Shown: piece after piece, positions 1 through 56,246 of the stretch | How the letters are laid out: the number at the start of each line of letters is the position of its first letter | How positions within the stretch are numbered: the stretch's first letter is position 1 | From: Escherichia coli | GTDB lineage: Bacteria > Pseudomonadota > Gammaproteobacteria > Enterobacterales > Enterobacteriaceae | Length of the DNA: 64,000 bases | Assembly (NCBI RefSeq): GCF_003334765.1 | Contig: NZ_QOWT01000006.1 | Reading direction: 5' to 3' (one strand) | Notes under the pieces: model-generated | Seen by the model: only the letters and a program-made list of their open reading frames with translations | What the model was told of the DNA's origin: nothing | Database searches by the model: none | Translations under genes and position numbers: made by a program

Positions 1-303
1 TGTCGGTTTACCTGTGGTTCCCGAAGAAGCATGAATGCGCACCACTTGTTCCATTGGCACGGCAAAGGTGTCAAAGGGATAGTTGTCGCGCAGATCCTGT
101 TTGGTGGTACAGGGAAATTTACGCAGGTCTGAAAGTTCCCTGAAATCATCAGGATGTACGCCTGCTGCGTCGAATTTGCGCCGATACATCGGCACATTTT
201 CATACGCGTGTTTGAGCGTCCATTTCAGACGCTGTGTTTGCAACGCCTGTAACTCATCAACAGACGCGGTTTCAATCGGGTCAAGCTTTGTATTGGTTAT
301 CAT
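1..303 (-). CDS. paaK: phenylacetate-CoA ligase, 5' portion only (gene runs off window start)
   Basis: Minus-strand ATG at 301-303; translation [22 protein letters not shown]... recognised as PaaK N-terminus; lies directly downstream of paaJ. Confidence 0.9.
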
Positions 304-329
304 TGTAGGGTACTCGCAGGTTGATATGC

Positions 330-1535
330 TCAAACACGCTCCAGAATCATGGCGATGCCCTGACCGACACCGATGCACATGGTGCACAATGCGTAACGAC
401 CGTTACGCCGATGCAGCTCATGGCTGGCAGCCAGTGCCAGGCGGGCACCACTCATTCCCAACGGATGGCCTAAGGCGATAGCGCCTCCGTTGGGGTTAAC
501 ATGTGGGGCATCATCAGGCAGCCCCAATTCGCGTAGTACACCCAACGCCTGGGCCGCGAACGCTTCGTTCAGTTCAATCACGTCCATATCGTGAATACTC
601 AGCCCTGCGCGTTCCAGCACCCGGCGAGTTGCAGGCACCGGACCAAGCCCCATCAGGCGCGGTTCCACCCCGGCGGTTGCCATGGCTACGATACGCGCCC
701 GCGGTGTCAGTCCTTGCGCTGCTGCCATCTGTTCACTGGCAATAATCAACGCAGCGGCTCCGTCATTCACCCCGGAAGCATTGCCTGCGGTAATCACCCC
801 ATTGGCACGAAATGGTGCTTTTAACCCACGTAACTGTTCCAGCGTCGTTTCCGGGCGCAGATGCTCATCATGTTGTATTTCTGTTACAACACCTTTCTTG
901 TTTTTCAACACAACCGGAACAATCTCCTCAGCCAGAATGCCTGAGGATTGCGCTTTTGCCGTACGTTGCTGACTGCGTAGCGCAAAACTATCTTGATCTT
1001 CTCGTGAGATTTTTAACAGTTCAGCTACATTCTCTGCCGTTTCCGGCATGCTGTCAGTTCCAAATTGCTGAGCCATGAGCGGGTTCACAAATCGCCAGCC
1101 AATAGTGGTATCGAACATCTCAGCCTGACGAGAAAATGCACTGGCTGCCTTGCCCATAACAAACGGTGCCCGTGACATTGACTCCACGCCACCGGCGATC
1201 AGCAAATCGCCATCGCCCGCTTTAATCGCCCGTGCGGCAAACCCCAGTGCGTCCAGCCCGGAACCACACAAGCGGTTAATGGTTGTGCCGGAAACACTCT
1301 GCGGCAGCCCCGCCAGTAAAGTCGCCATCCGGGCTACGTTACGGTTATCTTCTCCCGCCTGATTAGCACAGCCGAGGATCACATCATCGATACACTCCGC
1401 ATCGAGACGCGGGTTTCGCACCAGCAGTTCCCGCAAAGGGATAGCAGCCAGATCATCAGCCCGAACACTTGATAATGCCCCGCCGTAGCGACCAATTGGC
1501 GTACGAATTCCGTCACAAATAAAGGCTTCACGCAT
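330..1535 (-). CDS. paaJ: 3-oxoadipyl-CoA / 3-oxo-5,6-dehydrosuberyl-CoA thiolase
   Basis: 401-aa ORF from track; thiolase-family sequence; paa operon synteny. Confidence 0.93.
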
Positions 1536-1957
1536 CAGGCTTCTCCTGTAATGGTGCCGCCGATGCGGTGAGATTTACCGCGAAACAGCGCAACCGTTTT
1601 TTGTTGTTGGTTAACAATTTCGATGTCGTAAACACCGGTTTGCTTGCCCTGATGACGTACCTGCGCAGTAGCAGTTAAGGTGTCTCCGGCAAAGCCTGGA
1701 CGCAAAAAATCAATCGTGCAGGCAGAAGCGACGGCTGCCAGCCCCTGGCTATTGCAGGCGTAGGCAAAGGCAGTATCAGCCAGTGAAAATAGCTGCCCGC
1801 CGTGGCAACTTTGATGACCGTTAAGCATTTGTGCAGTGACGGTCATGGTCACTACAGCAAAGCCTTCATCCATTGAGATAATGTCGATGCCAAGCGCTTT
1901 GGCGCAGGCATCGTTCTCATACATTGCATGGGCATTTTGCCAGGCCTTATGACTCAT
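1535..1957 (-). CDS. paaI: hotdog-fold acyl-CoA thioesterase
   Basis: Track ORF trimmed to ATG at 1955-1957 (MSHKAWQNAH...), 140 aa. Confidence 0.9.
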   Translation of the reverse strand: MSHKAWQNAHAMYENDACAKALGIDIISMDEGFAVVTMTVTAQMLNGHQSCHGGQLFSLADTAFAYACNSQGLAAVASACTIDFLRPGFAGDTLTATAQVRHQGKQTGVYDIEIVNQQQKTVALFRGKSHRIGGTITGEA

Positions 1958-3374
1958 AACCGCTCTCCAGAAGCGCCCGTTGGCGCAGCAATGAACATGG
2001 GCGATAGCGTTCTTCGCCATAGTGATGCTGTAGATTTTCAAGGAGCCTTAATATTCGCTGCCAGCCAAGTTGCGCTCCCCAGGCAAGTGGGCCATATGGA
2101 TAATTCACCCCAAGACGCATGGCGGTATCGATATCCTGTTCAGAGGCCACGCCTTTTTGAAGCGCATCAAGGGCTTCATTGATGATCATTGCTACCGTTC
2201 GCCAAATCAGCATTCCTGGGTAATCTGCAATTTGCAGCACTGTTTTGCCCTGCTGTTGCAGGTAATAAATGGCCTTGCGGGTCGCTGAGTCCGGGTTCAC
2301 CGCTGCAGCAGCAATGGTCACCACCTTGCCCGCCATTTTATCGATCACTACCACCGGGCGTGCCAGTCGTATTGCCAGCGCCTGTGCCGTCTCGCCTTGT
2401 GTCTCAATCAATAAAACATCGTCAATTTCCGTGACACCGTCACTTTTCTTTTCTACTTTCATTGGGCTAAAACTGTCGCTTACCGCTTCCAGGCCAACAA
2501 CTGCCTCACGTTCCGCGCGCCAGTCGTACACGCCCAGCCCACTTTTCTTGCCCAACCGTCCACCAATCACCAGTTCCTGTTGCACCAGCGAAGGTAAAAA
2601 ACGACGCTCCTGCCAGAAAGCGTTAAACACCGAACAGGTGACAGCAAAATTGACGTCCTGACCAATCAGATCGGTTAATTCCAGCGGCCCCATCGGGAAA
2701 CCAGCGCCATCGCGAAGTGCAGCGTCAATCACTTCTGGTGCAGCAACCTGCTCTTCCAGTGCCCGCCAGGCCTCGGAATAATAAGGACGCGCAACACGGT
2801 TAACGATAAATCCAGGAGTCGAATGACAGCGCACAGGCTGCTTACCCCAACTCAACGTTAGTTCACACAACTGCTCAACAACTTCCGCCGCCGTTGCCAG
2901 CCCACTGACCACCTCCACCAACTTCATCACCGGTGCCGGGTTAAAAAAATGCAGCCCCGCAACACGTTCAGGATTTTTTATCTCCGCAGCAATCGCGGTT
3001 ATAGAGATTGACGAAGTGTTAGTGGTCAATAGCGTTTGTGGCGGGCAAACTTCCGCCAGCTGTGCAAAGAGCGCTTTTTTGACTTCCAGACGTTCAGACG
3101 CCGCTTCAATGACCAGGTCCGCAGCTGCCAGCGCGTGAATATCGGTCACCGGGATCAGGCGTTTCAATGTGCGTTCACAGGTTTCAGCAGTCAGTTTTCC
3201 CCGCGTCACGCGTGAATTTAGCCGCGCGTGTATCCCGTCGATTGCGCGGGTCAGCGCTTCAGCAGAAATGTCATACAGTAAAACCTGGTGTCCATGACTG
3301 GCAGCAACTTCAGCAATGCCTGCCCCCATGGTGCCGCTCCCAATCACTGCCACAGTTTGCACATTTATCATCAT
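1947..3374 (-). CDS. paaH: 3-hydroxyadipyl-CoA dehydrogenase (NAD+)
   Basis: Track ORF trimmed to ATG at 3372-3374 (MMINVQTVAVIGSGTMGAGIA, Rossmann motif), 475 aa. Confidence 0.9.
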   Translation of the reverse strand: MMINVQTVAVIGSGTMGAGIAEVAASHGHQVLLYDISAEALTRAIDGIHARLNSRVTRGKLTAETCERTLKRLIPVTDIHALAAADLVIEAASERLEVKKALFAQLAEVCPPQTLLTTNTSSISITAIAAEIKNPERVAGLHFFNPAPVMKLVEVVSGLATAAEVVEQLCELTLSWGKQPVRCHSTPGFIVNRVARPYYSEAWRALEEQVAAPEVIDAALRDGAGFPMGPLELTDLIGQDVNFAVTCSVFNAFWQERRFLPSLVQQELVIGGRLGKKSGLGVYDWRAEREAVVGLEAVSDSFSPMKVEKKSDGVTEIDDVLLIETQGETAQALAIRLARPVVVIDKMAGKVVTIAAAAVNPDSATRKAIYYLQQQGKTVLQIADYPGMLIWRTVAMIINEALDALQKGVASEQDIDTAMRLGVNYPYGPLAWGAQLGWQRILRLLENLQHHYGEERYRPCSLLRQRALLESGYES

Positions 3375-45277: not shown

Positions 45278-46177
45278 CTAAACAGCACCTTTATACTTCA
45301 GCCTATCTATAAATAATGAGAATGCCGAGCCAGCATGTCGACGGTGTGGATAGTACAGGTGATAACCGGGTAAATCTGGTGTGAATTTATCCAAAACACG
45401 TATCAGTTTTTTTTCTTTAATAGCCCGCTCAACCTGATCATAAGGTAGATACGCCAATCCATGCCCATCAATTGCAGCATCAATGATCAGGTCTATCGTA
45501 TTCAGTAAAAGCTGACCTTCCATGCGAACACGAACTTCACGTCCACCGCGTATTAATCTCCAGCGATTTGCTGTACCCGATGTGGGAAGATACAAATTAA
45601 TTGCCTGATGATCTATTAATTGTGACACTGACGTTGGAACACTTCGGCGAGAAAAATAATCCGGTGAGCCAACAATAGCCATTGGTATATCTGGCCCGAT
45701 TCGAATGGCGATCATATCTTTATCCATCTCCCCACCCAGACGGACGCCTGCATCAAAACGTTCAGAAACGACATCGGTCAAACCATAATCAATGGTGAGC
45801 TGAATATCAATTTCAGGATGCGATTTCAGGAATGTGCGCATTGCTGGTAACAATATCGTTTTTGCTGCATGTTCTACAGTAGTAATACGTATTGTCCCGG
45901 ATGGGCGGTTCTGCAGATCGCTCAGGGATGCCATGGCTGAATCTATGTCATGCAACATAGGGCCAAGAACAGACAAAAGATGCTCGCCCGCTTCAGTTGG
46001 AACAACGCTGCGCGTGGTTCGCGTCAGAAGCCGCAATCCCAATCGTTCTTCTATACGACGCACTATCTGGCTTAAAGCTGACTGCGCCATGCTCAGGCGG
46101 GCTGCTGCACGAGTGAAGCTACGCTCCTCTGCAACGACGACAAACGCCATCAGATCAGCGATTTCTTCACGCTTCAT
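45278..46177 (-). CDS. pgrR: LysR-family regulator of peptidoglycan recycling
   Basis: 299-aa ORF with N-terminal LysR HTH; divergent from ycjY. Confidence 0.88.
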   Translation of the reverse strand: MKREEIADLMAFVVVAEERSFTRAAARLSMAQSALSQIVRRIEERLGLRLLTRTTRSVVPTEAGEHLLSVLGPMLHDIDSAMASLSDLQNRPSGTIRITTVEHAAKTILLPAMRTFLKSHPEIDIQLTIDYGLTDVVSERFDAGVRLGGEMDKDMIAIRIGPDIPMAIVGSPDYFSRRSVPTSVSQLIDHQAINLYLPTSGTANRWRLIRGGREVRVRMEGQLLLNTIDLIIDAAIDGHGLAYLPYDQVERAIKEKKLIRVLDKFTPDLPGYHLYYPHRRHAGSAFSLFIDRLKYKGAV

Positions 46178-46302: not shown

Positions 46303-47260
46303 ATGAGGAACGGAATGATGAATAATAAAGTCAGCTTCACTAACAGCAATAATCCAACCATCTCTTTGTCTGCAGTGATCTATTTCCCTCCAAAATTTGA
46401 TGAAACCCGTCAGTATCAGGCAATTGTGTTATCTCACCCAGGTGGGGGCGTTAAAGAACAAACGGCCGGAACCTATGCCAAAAAACTGGCGGAAAAGGGA
46501 TTTGTCACTATTGCTTATGACGCATCTTATCAAGGTGAAAGTGGCGGCGAGCCGCGTCAGTTAGAAAACCCATACATTCGTACTGAAGACATCAGTGCCG
46601 TGATTGATTACCTGACAACGCTTTCTTATGTCGACAATACCCGAATTGGTGCGATGGGAATTTGTGCCGGTGCAGGATATACAGCCAATGCTGCAATTCA
46701 GGATCGCCGCATCAAGGCCATCGGTACCGTTAGTGCGGTCAATATTGGTTCGATATTCCGTAATGGTTGGGAAAACAATGTGAAATCTATTGATGCCCTG
46801 CCATACGTTGAAGCGGGTTCAAACGCCAGAACCAGCGATATTAGCAGCGGAGAATACGCCATTATGCCACTGGCACCAATGAAGGAGTCCGATGCGCCGA
46901 ACGAAGAACTGCGTCAGGCCTGGGAGTATTACCACACCCCTCGCGCGCAGTATCCAACAGCACCGGGTTACGCTACTTTGCGCAGCCTTAAGTTACGCTA
47001 CTTTGCGCAGCCTTAACCAGATTATTACCTATGATGCTTACCATATGGCGGAAGTGTACCTGACTCAGCCGACGCAGATTGTGGCGGGCAGCCAGGCAGG
47101 GAGCAAATGGATGAGTGACGACCTGTACGATCGAGCATCAAGCCAGGATAAACGCTATCACATTGTTGAAGGCGCAAACCATATGGATCTTTATGACGGC
47201 AAAGCCTATGTGGCTGAAGCAATTTCAGTATTAGCTCCGTTCTTTGAGGAAACTCTGTAA
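46303..47260 (+). pseudogene. ycjY: ycjY (dienelactone hydrolase / S9-like hydrolase) disrupted by a 25-bp tandem duplication
   Basis: Track ORFs 46303..47016 and 46892..47260 are in different frames; deleting one 25-bp copy fuses them into one ORF of about 310 codons. Confidence 0.8.
46967..47016 (+). repeat. perfect 25-bp tandem duplication (GTTACGCTACTTTGCGCAGCCTTAA x2) inside ycjY
   Basis: Read directly at 46967-46991 and 46992-47016. Confidence 0.95.
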
Positions 47261-47325
47261 TGAAACATATTCAAATCCGCAATAGTGATATGGACTGGCA
47301 TATTGCTGCCAATAATCTGGGATAA
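47260..47325 (+). CDS. ymjD: 21-codon ORF (MKHIQIRNSDMDWHIAANNLG), possible deletion remnant
   Basis: ATG overlaps the ycjY stop (TAATG); name recalled from K-12 annotation with uncertainty. Confidence 0.4.
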   Translation: MKHIQIRNSDMDWHIAANNLG

Positions 47326-47330
47326 TTTTC

Positions 47331-47513
47331 ATGAAAAATGTACTGATTCTTGGTGCTGGCGGTCAGATAGCCCGCCATGTGATTAATCAACTGGCAGATA
47401 AGCAAACCATTAAACAAACTTTATTTGCCCGTCAGCCAGCAAAAATCCACAAACCCTATCCAACTAATAAAATGCAAACAACTTCCGGCAAAAAAGTGAT
47501 ACAAGATCGATGA
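47331..47513 (+). pseudogene. ymjC: N-terminal fragment of an NAD(P)-binding (NmrA-like) protein
   Basis: 60-aa ORF with Rossmann motif ILGAGGQIARH; truncated, and its 3' end runs into repeat copy B. Confidence 0.6.
47470..47499. repeat. 30-bp repeat copy B (AAATGCAAACAACTTCCGGCAAAAAAGTGA), 96-125 bp upstream of mpaA
   Basis: 28/30 identity to copy A. Confidence 0.8.
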
Positions 47514-47594: not shown

Positions 47595-48297
47595 ATGACC
47601 GTAACCCGCCCACGCGCCGAACGCGGCGCATTTCCGCCCGGAACAGAACATTACGGACGTTCATTATTGGGCGCGCCGTTAATCTGGTTTCCTGCCCCTG
47701 CAGCCAGCCGCGAAAGTGGTTTGATTCTGGCTGGCACTCACGGTGATGAAAACTCTTCGGTCGTCACGCTCTCCTGTGCTCTGCGGACGTTGACACCTTC
47801 TTTGCGCCGTCATCATGTGGTGCTGTGTGTGAATCCTGACGGCTGCCAGTTGGGGTTACGGGCCAATGCTAATGGTGTGGATTTAAACAGAAACTTTCCG
47901 GCGGCGAACTGGAAGGAAGGTGAAACCGTTTATCGCTGGAACAGCGCCGCTGAAGAACGCGATGTCGTATTACTGACAGGTGACAAACCTGGCTCCGAAC
48001 CTGAAACCCAGGCGCTGTGCCAGCTTATACACCGCATTCAACCTGCCTGGGTGGTCTCATTCCACGATCCACTGGCCTGTATTGAAGATCCCAGACACAG
48101 CGAATTAGGCGAATGGCTGGCTCAGGCGTTTGAATTGCCTCTGGTAACCAGCGTCGGTTATGAAACGCCTGGCTCTTTCGGCAGTTGGTGTGCAGATCTG
48201 AACTTGCATTGCATCACCGCAGAGTTTCCGCCCATCTCCTCCGACGAAGCCAGCGAAAAATATCTCTTTGCGATGGCAAACTTGCTGCGCTGGCATC

Positions 48298-48323
<26 letters not shown>
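47595..48323 (+). CDS. mpaA: murein peptide amidase A (gamma-D-Glu-mDAP amidase, M14 family)
   Basis: Track ORF trimmed to ATG at 47595 (MTVTRPRAERG...), 242 aa. Confidence 0.88.
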
Positions 48324-55340: not shown

Positions 55341-56246
55341 TCAGAACGAGTAATTTACGCCGACACCTGCATAATGGAATTTATCACTGTCGCCTTCGTC
55401 GTGATCCTGCCACTCAAACGCGTATTCCAGCGAAACGGAAAGTCCGTTCTGGAAATCATAACCGTAAAATAAACCTACACGGTTAAAATCATGGCCTTCA
55501 CGTTCAATATCATCCTGCCAGTCCCAGTTACTCCAGCGATCCAGCCCAATGCGCGTATACGGCGTCACCGAGTGGTTGCCGAGCGTCAGCGGCAAATAGG
55601 CGCGAATTTCTTGCGTGGAAAACTCACCGTTATTGCGGCTGTCGTCCATATTGAAGCCGCGCTCGAGATAATAGTTCACTCGCAAGGCAACCGTTTCGTT
55701 GAAGGTATATTGCAGACCTGTTTCCGTTTCGACACGGGTATCAGCGTAACCGGTAGTGTTCAGATCGTTGGCAAATTTATACATCGACAACCAACCGTTG
55801 AAACGTAAATCGTCAGTCAGTTTCACATCCCAGTCTGGCGCGATTTTCCAGCGCTGCATATTCGCCGTGTCTTTACCCGGTTCATCAACGTAGTGATAAC
55901 CATAATTACGGAAACCGCCGGTCAGGCCGAAACTGAAATCATCGTTTTCGAGGAACTGATAATGCACCTCCAGCTCCGGGCGATCAAACCACGTTCCACG
56001 TTTACCCGCGCTATAATCTACCGGCCCTTCCTGATAATAGGCCAGAGCAATTCTCCACGGCCCGTTGGCGGCATTAAAATAGACTGAAGGCTCCGCCAGC
56101 CCATCCATATCTTCGCCATAACCCTCGACGTTTTCTATTTCGTACATCGCGCCGATATTAAAGTGCCAGTCGTTCCTTTCCTCGGCCTGTGCGCAGGCCA
56201 TTCCCGCACACATCACCAGTGCGGTACAGGGTAATAACTTTTTCAT
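55341..56246 (-). CDS. ompG: outer membrane porin G (monomeric 14-strand)
   Basis: 301-aa ORF with signal peptide and C-terminal ...VNYSF. Confidence 0.92.
   Translation of the reverse strand: MKKLLPCTALVMCAGMACAQAEERNDWHFNIGAMYEIENVEGYGEDMDGLAEPSVYFNAANGPWRIALAYYQEGPVDYSAGKRGTWFDRPELEVHYQFLENDDFSFGLTGGFRNYGYHYVDEPGKDTANMQRWKIAPDWDVKLTDDLRFNGWLSMYKFANDLNTTGYADTRVETETGLQYTFNETVALRVNYYLERGFNMDDSRNNGEFSTQEIRAYLPLTLGNHSVTPYTRIGLDRWSNWDWQDDIEREGHDFNRVGLFYGYDFQNGLSVSLEYAFEWQDHDEGDSDKFHYAGVGVNYSF

Follow-up and report, generated by a model that had tools for sequence, protein, structure and literature searches.

The ycjY gene in the window, the whole 64-kb stretch of Escherichia coli DNA analysed here, is interrupted by a perfect head-to-tail repeat of 2 x 25 bp (GTTACGCTACTTTGCGCAGCCTTAA; positions 46967–46991 and 46992–47016), and is very probably a lineage-specific loss-of-function pseudogene, formed by one duplication of 25 bp and inherited vertically since. 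A preliminary description of this DNA had proposed pseudogenisation of ycjY by tandem duplication, and the reading frames, prevalence, flanking haplotypes and secondary decay of the allele support that proposal. The features by which a pseudogene is recognised are present: close relatives have an intact orthologue, the indel breaks the frame, conserved residues are lost and the lesion is heritable. The features of the locus, in window coordinates, are as follows.

45278–46177, minus strand: pgrR (ycjZ), a LysR-type regulator gene divergent from the ycjY operon; intact in the window.
46315–47016, plus strand: truncated 5′ ycjY frame of 233 aa as PGAP starts it, or of 237 aa if translation begins at ATG 46303.
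46892–47260, plus strand: 122-aa ORF whose first 33 residues are out of frame and whose remainder is YATLRSL plus the native C-terminus; 65 contigs have it called as a gene.
46967–46991, plus strand: repeat copy 1 (GTTACGCTACTTTGCGCAGCCTTAA), the native ycjY copy; it starts on the third base of the G218 codon and stops after two bases of the N226 codon (numbering of the 306-aa protein).
46992–47016, plus strand: repeat copy 2, the extra copy, read in the shifted frame as K-L-R-Y-F-A-Q-P; its final three bases are the premature stop TAA (47014–47016).
47017–47260, plus strand: 3′ part of ycjY, out of frame with the 5′ part and corresponding to native residues N226–L306.
47260–47325, plus strand: ymjD-like remnant of 21 codons (MKHIQIRNSDMDWHIAANNLG followed by a stop), the N-terminal stub of a second alpha/beta-hydrolase gene.
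47331–47468, plus strand: ymjC-like fragment, labelled 'NAD-dependent dehydratase, incomplete' by PGAP; a pseudogene in two-copy and single-copy genomes alike.
47595–48323, plus strand: mpaA, which encodes murein tripeptide amidase and closes the operon; intact. MpaA WP_000219122.1 is common to carriers ML35, SHP24, NCTC9087, 98-3133, E423 and FORC 064 as well as three single-copy relatives, and carrier VE-F10 has MpaA under a different accession (WP_063123451.1).

The repeat was described earlier at 46967–47016, and its coordinates, the gene that it interrupts, the frames, the stop and the restored ORF are all confirmed. Tandem Repeats Finder gives it a score of 100 with 100% matches, and the junction in carriers reads ...GCAGCCTTAAGTTACGC.... 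No third match to GTTACGCTACTTTGCGCAGCCTTAA is present in the 64-kb window with up to 3 mismatches, the unit has 0 matches in 100 shuffles of the sequence, and simple arithmetic predicts ~6e-11 perfect 25-bp tandem duplications by chance per 64 kb of random sequence. Extension by a single base fails on both sides (46966 is g versus a at 46991; 47017 is c versus g at 46992), so the junctions have no microhomology, which the earlier description had named, beside slippage, as one of two possible routes to the duplication. Searches for inverted repeats flanking the duplication and for promoter or terminator signals newly made by it found none. A replication template-switch or slippage error is probably the origin of the duplication, though its junctions lack microhomology.

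The insertion is eight codons plus one base long and is not a multiple of three. A ribosome moving past Leu225 would read eight wrong codons (KLRYFAQP) and halt at the TAA that ends copy 2, which lies 81 codons short of the native end. The 233-aa product thus specified contains 225 native residues and 8 out-of-frame residues after Leu225 (C-terminus ...LRSLKLRYFAQP), retaining the nucleophile motif G-I-C117-A-G. In-silico removal of one copy yields one uninterrupted frame, 310 codons long or 306 counted from the annotated start, reading ...PGYATLRSLNQIITYDAYH..., in agreement with the ~310 codons given in the preliminary description; the list of ORFs likewise bears out its statements that the upstream frame ends at 47014–47016 and that the C-terminal coding sequence lies in the ORF at 46892–47260.

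Over residues 1–306 the restored protein shows 100% identity to PDB 5XB6 ("Uncharacterized protein YcjY"), the YcjY protein of K-12 (b1327), and across 650 bp the only difference between K-12 MG1655 and the window is the 25-bp gap. The neighbourhood is also the same, with mppA, pgrR (divergent), ycjY, ymjD/ymjC remnants, mpaA, ycjG, tpx and tyrR in the K-12 order; the O157:H7 counterpart of ymjD is still full length, though frameshifted. The allele in the window differs from K-12 YcjY in that it encodes residues 1–225 plus 8 junk residues, without His281 and the last two core strands. YcjY is a cytoplasmic alpha/beta hydrolase with an uncharacterised substrate, and its gene heads the PgrR-controlled ycjY-ymjD-ymjC-mpaA operon. 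The ycjY-ymjDC-mpaA genes belong to the regulon of PgrR, a peptidoglycan recycling regulator (PMC5934670). Over-expression of ycjY leads to filamentation (PMC3614548), and its GxCxG motif once put YcjY forward as a candidate cPHB polymerase (PMC3709699). Pfam matches to the restored protein are generic for alpha/beta hydrolases (Peptidase_S15, DLH, Abhydrolase_1) and those in NCBIfam are all sub-threshold; function as a UilS-type lactonase, the best of the latter, was dropped as a candidate because its 86.6 bits are far below the cutoff of 400.

The next solved relative is PA2218 of Pseudomonas aeruginosa (PDB 2HDW; E = 2.6e-45), a structural-genomics target and a member of the same COG1073-like family with both the G-I-C-x-G elbow and the G-A-x-H-x-D-L-Y-D motif. 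It differs in having ~40% identity and an N-terminal extension; its function is equally uncharacterised, and the comparison is relevant only for conservation of the C-terminus. In YcjY the characteristic alpha/beta-hydrolase elements, G115-I-C117-A-G119 after strand 106–116 and H281 after strand 271–276, occur together in the restored protein only, the actual product of the window having the nucleophile elbow without the catalytic His.

YcjY was aligned with 41 full-length homologues (31–60% identity) that came out of a search of 1.84 billion representative proteins. C117, P244, G250, H281, Y285 and F301 are among the nearly invariant positions and are each conserved at 90% or more; C117 is in the nucleophile elbow upstream of the break, and the others are all downstream and conserved at 95% or more. 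YATLRSL (residues 219–225) is among the least conserved stretches, with a mean top-residue frequency of 0.37 and only S224 reaching 0.79. The preliminary description had raised the question of whether this heptad sits in a conserved region: the heptad itself does not, and the region downstream, including the catalytic His, does show conservation.

An AlphaFold model of YcjY built on the homologue alignment (pLDDT 97.4, pTM 0.94) has a mostly helical insertion at residues 140–240, between core strands 133–139 and 245–250. After the break it contains strands 245–250 and 271–276, helices 256–265, 283–286 and 288–305, and the His281 loop. The segment N226–L306, left out of frame in the window, holds strand 245–250, helix 256–265, strand 271–276, His281, Tyr285 and the C-terminal helix, and with these 81 residues missing the protein loses two core strands and the loop of the near-invariant His281, which pairs with the Cys117 nucleophile, as well as Tyr285 and the C-terminal helix. 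Conservation and the model together indicate that the 233-aa product would be catalytically dead, because two core strands and His281 are lost, and, judged against canonical alpha/beta-hydrolase architecture, it is probably also unstable.

The question of whether two copies occur in ycjY of other E. coli, posed at the outset, is answered by a search with a 250-bp query across the repeat against 5,426 complete E. coli genomes, 5,236 of which match the locus. Fifty-three of the 5,236 have the two-copy allele (at least 99% over the full 250 bp), and the remaining genomes sampled span 225 bp and have one copy (~99% single-copy). A 650-bp query recovers the same 53 carriers; each of the 51 that were listed matches the window at 100%. 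A 100-bp query was uninformative, since BLAST broke it in two and single-copy genomes then reached 100%. The sources of the carriers, spread over several continents, are humans, chickens, pigs, dogs, a crow, an opossum, cucumber, lettuce and wastewater; among the carriers are NCTC9087, NCTC9041, the O157:H16 strain 98-3133, the O2:H16 strain BA92, and the classic laboratory strain ML35. The two-copy allele is already recorded in RefSeq annotation, and hence known: PGAP labels it "ycjY, alpha/beta hydrolase, frameshifted" in all carriers examined, among them ML35, 98-3133, SHP24, NCTC9087, E423 and FORC 064. A literature search for published discussion of the ycjY 25-bp duplication found none.

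These observations bear on the suggestion, also made in the preliminary description, that the second copy is an assembly or sequencing error and that the true copy number is one. Mis-assembly can produce short tandem duplications, as a general possibility only. However, the same allele is present in 53 independently sequenced complete genomes obtained with different technologies, and the exact 233-aa product is encoded on at least 1,000 public contigs (NCBI, ENA, JGI, Logan), with GenBank accessions available. Among the complete genomes is that of the 1950s isolate ML35, a 169x PacBio assembly with two rounds of Illumina polishing with Pilon (PMC5814495). The probability that the duplication is an artefact is accordingly close to nil.

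Further lesions are found both within the carrier lineage and elsewhere. In VE-F10, PEC399 and NZ_OZ121069.1, three of the carriers, ycjY also contains another perfect tandem duplication, of 56 bp, corresponding to window positions 46755–46810, and PGAP labels the gene in this form "frameshifted; internal stop". As 56 + 25 = 81 is a multiple of three, this duplication was considered as a compensating suppressor, and was ruled out by the in-frame stops between the two duplications (...PYVDSVMVGKTM and then a stop). It is disruptive, the pattern expected of a gene already free from selection. In other genomes a 240-aa YcjY product is encoded on at least 1,000 contigs and, from comparison of the protein with the wild-type codons, is consistent with a 1-bp deletion in GCGCCGAAC; the idea that it is the O157:H7 version of the gene was dropped, ycjY being intact in O157:H7 strain FRIK2533. 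Shorter products of 155, 127 and 82 aa occur on 83–112 contigs each, and Ec1115 has an IS3 insertion in ycjY. The sequence data point to relaxed selection on ycjY.

One metagenome scaffold, FERR18-1_SAMN06350202_METAG-scaffold_238 (L012), matches the window over 6.9 kb with a single difference, a G missing from AAGGAG, and has an uninterrupted 314-aa ORF that includes the duplication. As this is a single contig and the missing base belongs to a GG homopolymer, sequencing error and true intragenic suppression are equally likely. If real, the frame-reopening deletion hints that some selection for the YcjY C-terminus may persist.

The L012 deletion, which restores the frame, is one of several observations that could be taken to mean that the gene is split yet functional, either through reassembly of the 233-aa fragment with a C-terminal fragment initiated at ATG 46892, or through a +1 slip at CCU-UAA-C giving complete YcjY with eight extra residues in the variable cap region. 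The break does sit in the least conserved, non-core part of YcjY, a good Shine-Dalgarno-like AAGGAG (46882–46887) lies 4 nt ahead of ATG 46892, and a +1 shift at the premature stop, as read from the sequence, re-enters the native frame. Translation of the 122-aa ORF from this ATG is putative, and its product would bear 33 junk residues. Inspection of 47005–47020 finds no recognised slippery motif, and there is neither a slippery sequence of known type nor a stimulatory element. Unlike genes with programmed ribosomal frameshifts, the two-frame arrangement is not conserved, 99% of E. coli genomes and 41 of the 41 aligned homologues having one continuous ORF. The upstream 56-bp duplication places internal stops in three carriers, and ycjY is inactivated in other lineages too. 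A functional split gene is thus scarcely credible, and loss of function is the preferred reading.

Several comparisons address whether the allele arose once. The window is the same as strain SHP24, without difference, over the 36.6 kb shared in the alignment. Flanking SNPs were compared over ~44 kb in nine genomes (six carriers and three single-copy relatives); SNPs in the carriers are all derived and form a nested pattern, and none conflicts with duplication state. Four SNPs are common to 98-3133 and FORC 064, one further SNP is common to both and ML35, and E423 carries ten SNPs of its own. ETEC4073, the closest of the single-copy genomes, shows the basal haplotype plus two SNPs private to it.

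Longer searches were calibrated for the cost of the gap. With the 650-bp query, all 625 aligned bases of K-12 MG1655 match and its score falls 163 bits short of the self-match; it differs by the gap alone, so the 25-bp gap costs 163 bits. In a 22-kb search the best single-copy genomes score exactly 163 bits under the window, and hence differ from it by the duplication only. The 49 carriers listed in this search belong to one closely related haplotype set with 0–6 SNPs per 22 kb. When the FORC 064 haplotype is the query, the top ranks go to 49 carriers, the highest-scoring single-copy genomes have the score of the basal haplotype minus the gap, and no single-copy genome has FORC 064-derived SNPs. 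At the hyc-hyp locus (24.9 kb), 1.5 Mb away, carriers make up 30 of the 60 best matches versus ~1% of the database, and all six genomes identical to the SHP24 query there are carriers; the top matches all fall within 0–2 SNPs per 25 kb, too few to split carriers from single-copy relatives. The carriers therefore appear to be close relatives genome-wide, and both the ~44-kb SNPs in nine genomes and the score rankings fit one event.

A mutational hotspot at which the identical 25-bp duplication arose several times independently would be an alternative to a single event. The 56-bp duplication, likewise perfect and in tandem, shows that short duplications do arise in ycjY, and the flanking haplotype is common to carriers and non-carriers, as recurrence would allow. 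Against this, the listed carriers are uniform (51 identical over 650 bp, and 49 in the 22-kb search on one related haplotype set) and strongly clustered genome-wide, the other 99% of E. coli, including all other phylogroups, are single-copy, and neither microhomology nor an inverted repeat is present to make these end points recur. Recurrent origin is improbable, and a single duplication followed by vertical inheritance is the reading retained here. The preliminary description had called the pseudogenisation recent. This holds insofar as the haplotype is otherwise identical to that of single-copy relatives over 22 kb, but the lineage in which the allele is fixed counts a 1950s strain among its members and spans many hosts and countries.

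The site had also been put forward as phase-variable. On this reading slippage would remove and restore a 25-bp repeat often enough to be useful, and so switch YcjY between off and on inside a population. Deletion is an inherent tendency of tandem direct repeats, exact loss of one copy would give back the wild-type gene, and single-copy genomes with an otherwise identical 22-kb haplotype exist; those single-copy genomes that have the basal haplotype, such as ETEC4073, CP8-3 and BR1220, might conceivably be revertants instead of outgroups. There is also a formal likeness to the contingency loci of Haemophilus, Neisseria and Campylobacter, simple-sequence repeats within coding regions whose copy number sets the frame and where loss of a unit would switch the gene on. 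The unit in ycjY differs from these in being 25 nt long (versus 1–9 nt) and present only twice, not a multi-copy tract of short units, and it has no copy-number spectrum, no detected revertants and secondary inactivation of the gene. A synthetic three-copy query is covered in one piece by none of the 5,426 genomes. The distribution of the allele follows clade, neither the FORC 064-type nor the SHP24-type carrier sublineage having single-copy members, and the allele is unchanged in the 1950s strain ML35 and in isolates from many hosts and from vegetables. Lastly, the 56-bp duplication in one sublineage does not compensate for the 25-bp duplication and would not be tolerable for a maintained switch. 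Phase variation of YcjY is thus very unlikely.

A variant of this idea is that the two-copy allele is a slowly reversible off state, in which exact deletion of one repeat or second-site indels restore YcjY when murein-peptide metabolism demands it, L012 being a real suppressor. It is likewise very unlikely, and the population data do not call for it; were it true, the L012 deletion would mark residual selection for the C-terminal half of YcjY.

The evidence fits best with a simple history for the pseudogene. A single 25-bp duplication would have occurred on a K-12-like haplotype, leaving a 233-aa product that lacks the C-terminal 81 residues and is predicted to be inactive. The haplotypes suggest that the allele was stable after its origin and was passed down vertically. 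Under relaxed selection one sublineage may then have gained the second disruptive duplication, with other lineages breaking ycjY in different ways. This course resembles that of ordinary E. coli pseudogenes labelled 'frameshifted' by PGAP, with an intact orthologue nearby, a single clonal frame-breaking indel and later decay in a sublineage. The lesion itself differs in being a 25-bp tandem duplication without microhomology, in contrast to the usual homopolymer indel or IS insertion.

The duplication is very probably ordinary gene decay, and neither an error nor a genetic switch. Its significance beyond bookkeeping is little, although it is a convenient clade marker for a K-12-like E. coli sublineage. 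Repeated independent inactivation of ycjY (the 25-bp and 56-bp duplications, the putative 1-bp deletion, the truncations and the IS3 insertion) suggests that the gene is dispensable in many niches. The carriers (ML35, the O157:H16 and O2:H16 isolates and several NCTC strains) are predicted to be natural ycjY null mutants, and such natural nulls could help to assign a function to this uncharacterised hydrolase of the PgrR regulon.

Three carriers of the 25-bp duplication in ycjY (VE-F10, PEC399 and NZ_OZ121069.1) have an additional perfect 56-bp tandem duplication within the same gene, formed from a segment that is present as a single copy in the window. The two duplications together regain register (56 + 25 = 81), but despite this there are internal stops between them, and PGAP labels the doubly duplicated gene as 'frameshifted; internal stop'.

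Features in and near ycjY (window coordinates unless a locus is named)
46755-46810: segment equivalent to the 56-bp tandem duplication of VE-F10 (NZ_AP027946.1; L016 689-800)
46884-46885: GG, site of the 1-bp deletion in metagenome scaffold_238
47260-47325: 21-codon open reading frame MKHIQIRNSDMDWHIAANNLG*, directly 3′ of ycjY
45407: 1-bp deletion in pgrR of strain 98-3133
33061-56422: private SNPs of E423 (locus L008)
55474-55513, within ompG (minus strand): 21-bp tandem repeat

The reading frame is reopened in one metagenome contig, FERR18-1_SAMN06350202_METAG-scaffold_238 (ENA ERZ28580107; L012 3001-3945), in which one G of AAGGAG is missing and which otherwise matches the window identically across 6.9 kb. 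The loss of this G in combination with the 25-bp duplication generates an uninterrupted 314-aa ycjY open reading frame (P0027), approximately 35 residues of which are read from a different frame. As it is seen on this one contig only, the missing G is either a true intragenic suppressor or a homopolymer error.

There are also ycjY lesions of other types. An IS3-family transposase interrupts the gene in the single-copy strain Ec1115 (NZ_CP126614.1; L014 1949-4205), and this is an independent inactivation. Further truncated ycjY products are common among public assemblies (P0018, P0034, P0035 and P0036); one of 240 aa is encoded on at least 1,000 contigs and, judged from its protein sequence, would fit the loss of 1 bp from GCGCCGAAC, and shorter ones, of 155, 127 and 82 aa, each occur on 83-112 contigs.

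In the O157:H16 strain 98-3133 the divergently transcribed pgrR is annotated as frameshifted too (L007 23179-24077), which leaves this strain with pseudogenes of ycjY and of its repressor alike. The matching span in STECUZB006 is, like that of 98-3133, 1 bp below the query length in both searches, and the pgrR deletion may be common to the two strains. An annotated frameshift is also present in ycjN, coding for an ABC transporter substrate-binding protein, in the single-copy relative CP8-3_Sichuan (L003 42969-44260). The ompG repeat is weak (1.9 copies, 78% matches) and keeps frame, its period corresponding to seven codons.

Carriers and their very close relatives vary at the site adjoining ttcA (L005, L006, L009, L010 1-5268 versus L004, L007, L008, L011 1-5143). 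Rac-type prophage genes (recE, recT, ralR, xisR and intR) are located beside ttcA in the carriers NCTC9087, ML35 and FORC 064 and in single-copy BR1220, and nifJ-ompN-uspF occupy this position in the carriers SHP24, 98-3133 and E423 and in single-copy ETEC4073. In RM10410 and two Z1323 strains, the 22-kb region contains an extra ~11 kb insertion with prophage genes. E423 has ten private SNPs in ~44 kb compared with 0-5 in other carriers, an excess that might stem from a mutator past, a patch of recombination or the quality of the assembly. A carrier subgroup (H256-H260 and H262-H267; E2, Z1323CEC0010, TUM3755, TB4019, TB4328 and others) has a match 11 bp shorter than the FORC 064 query, and the indel, lying at some point in window 31099-55999, would mark another carrier sublineage.

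The short open reading frame directly 3′ of ycjY encodes an N-terminal stub, left over from a second alpha/beta hydrolase that is distantly related. The gene for this hydrolase is full length yet frameshifted in O157:H7 FRIK2533 (L013 1569-2499), and in O157:H7 it is followed on its 3′ side by an intact SDR oxidoreductase gene. The K-12-type ymjD/ymjC arrangement is the remnant of a deletion.
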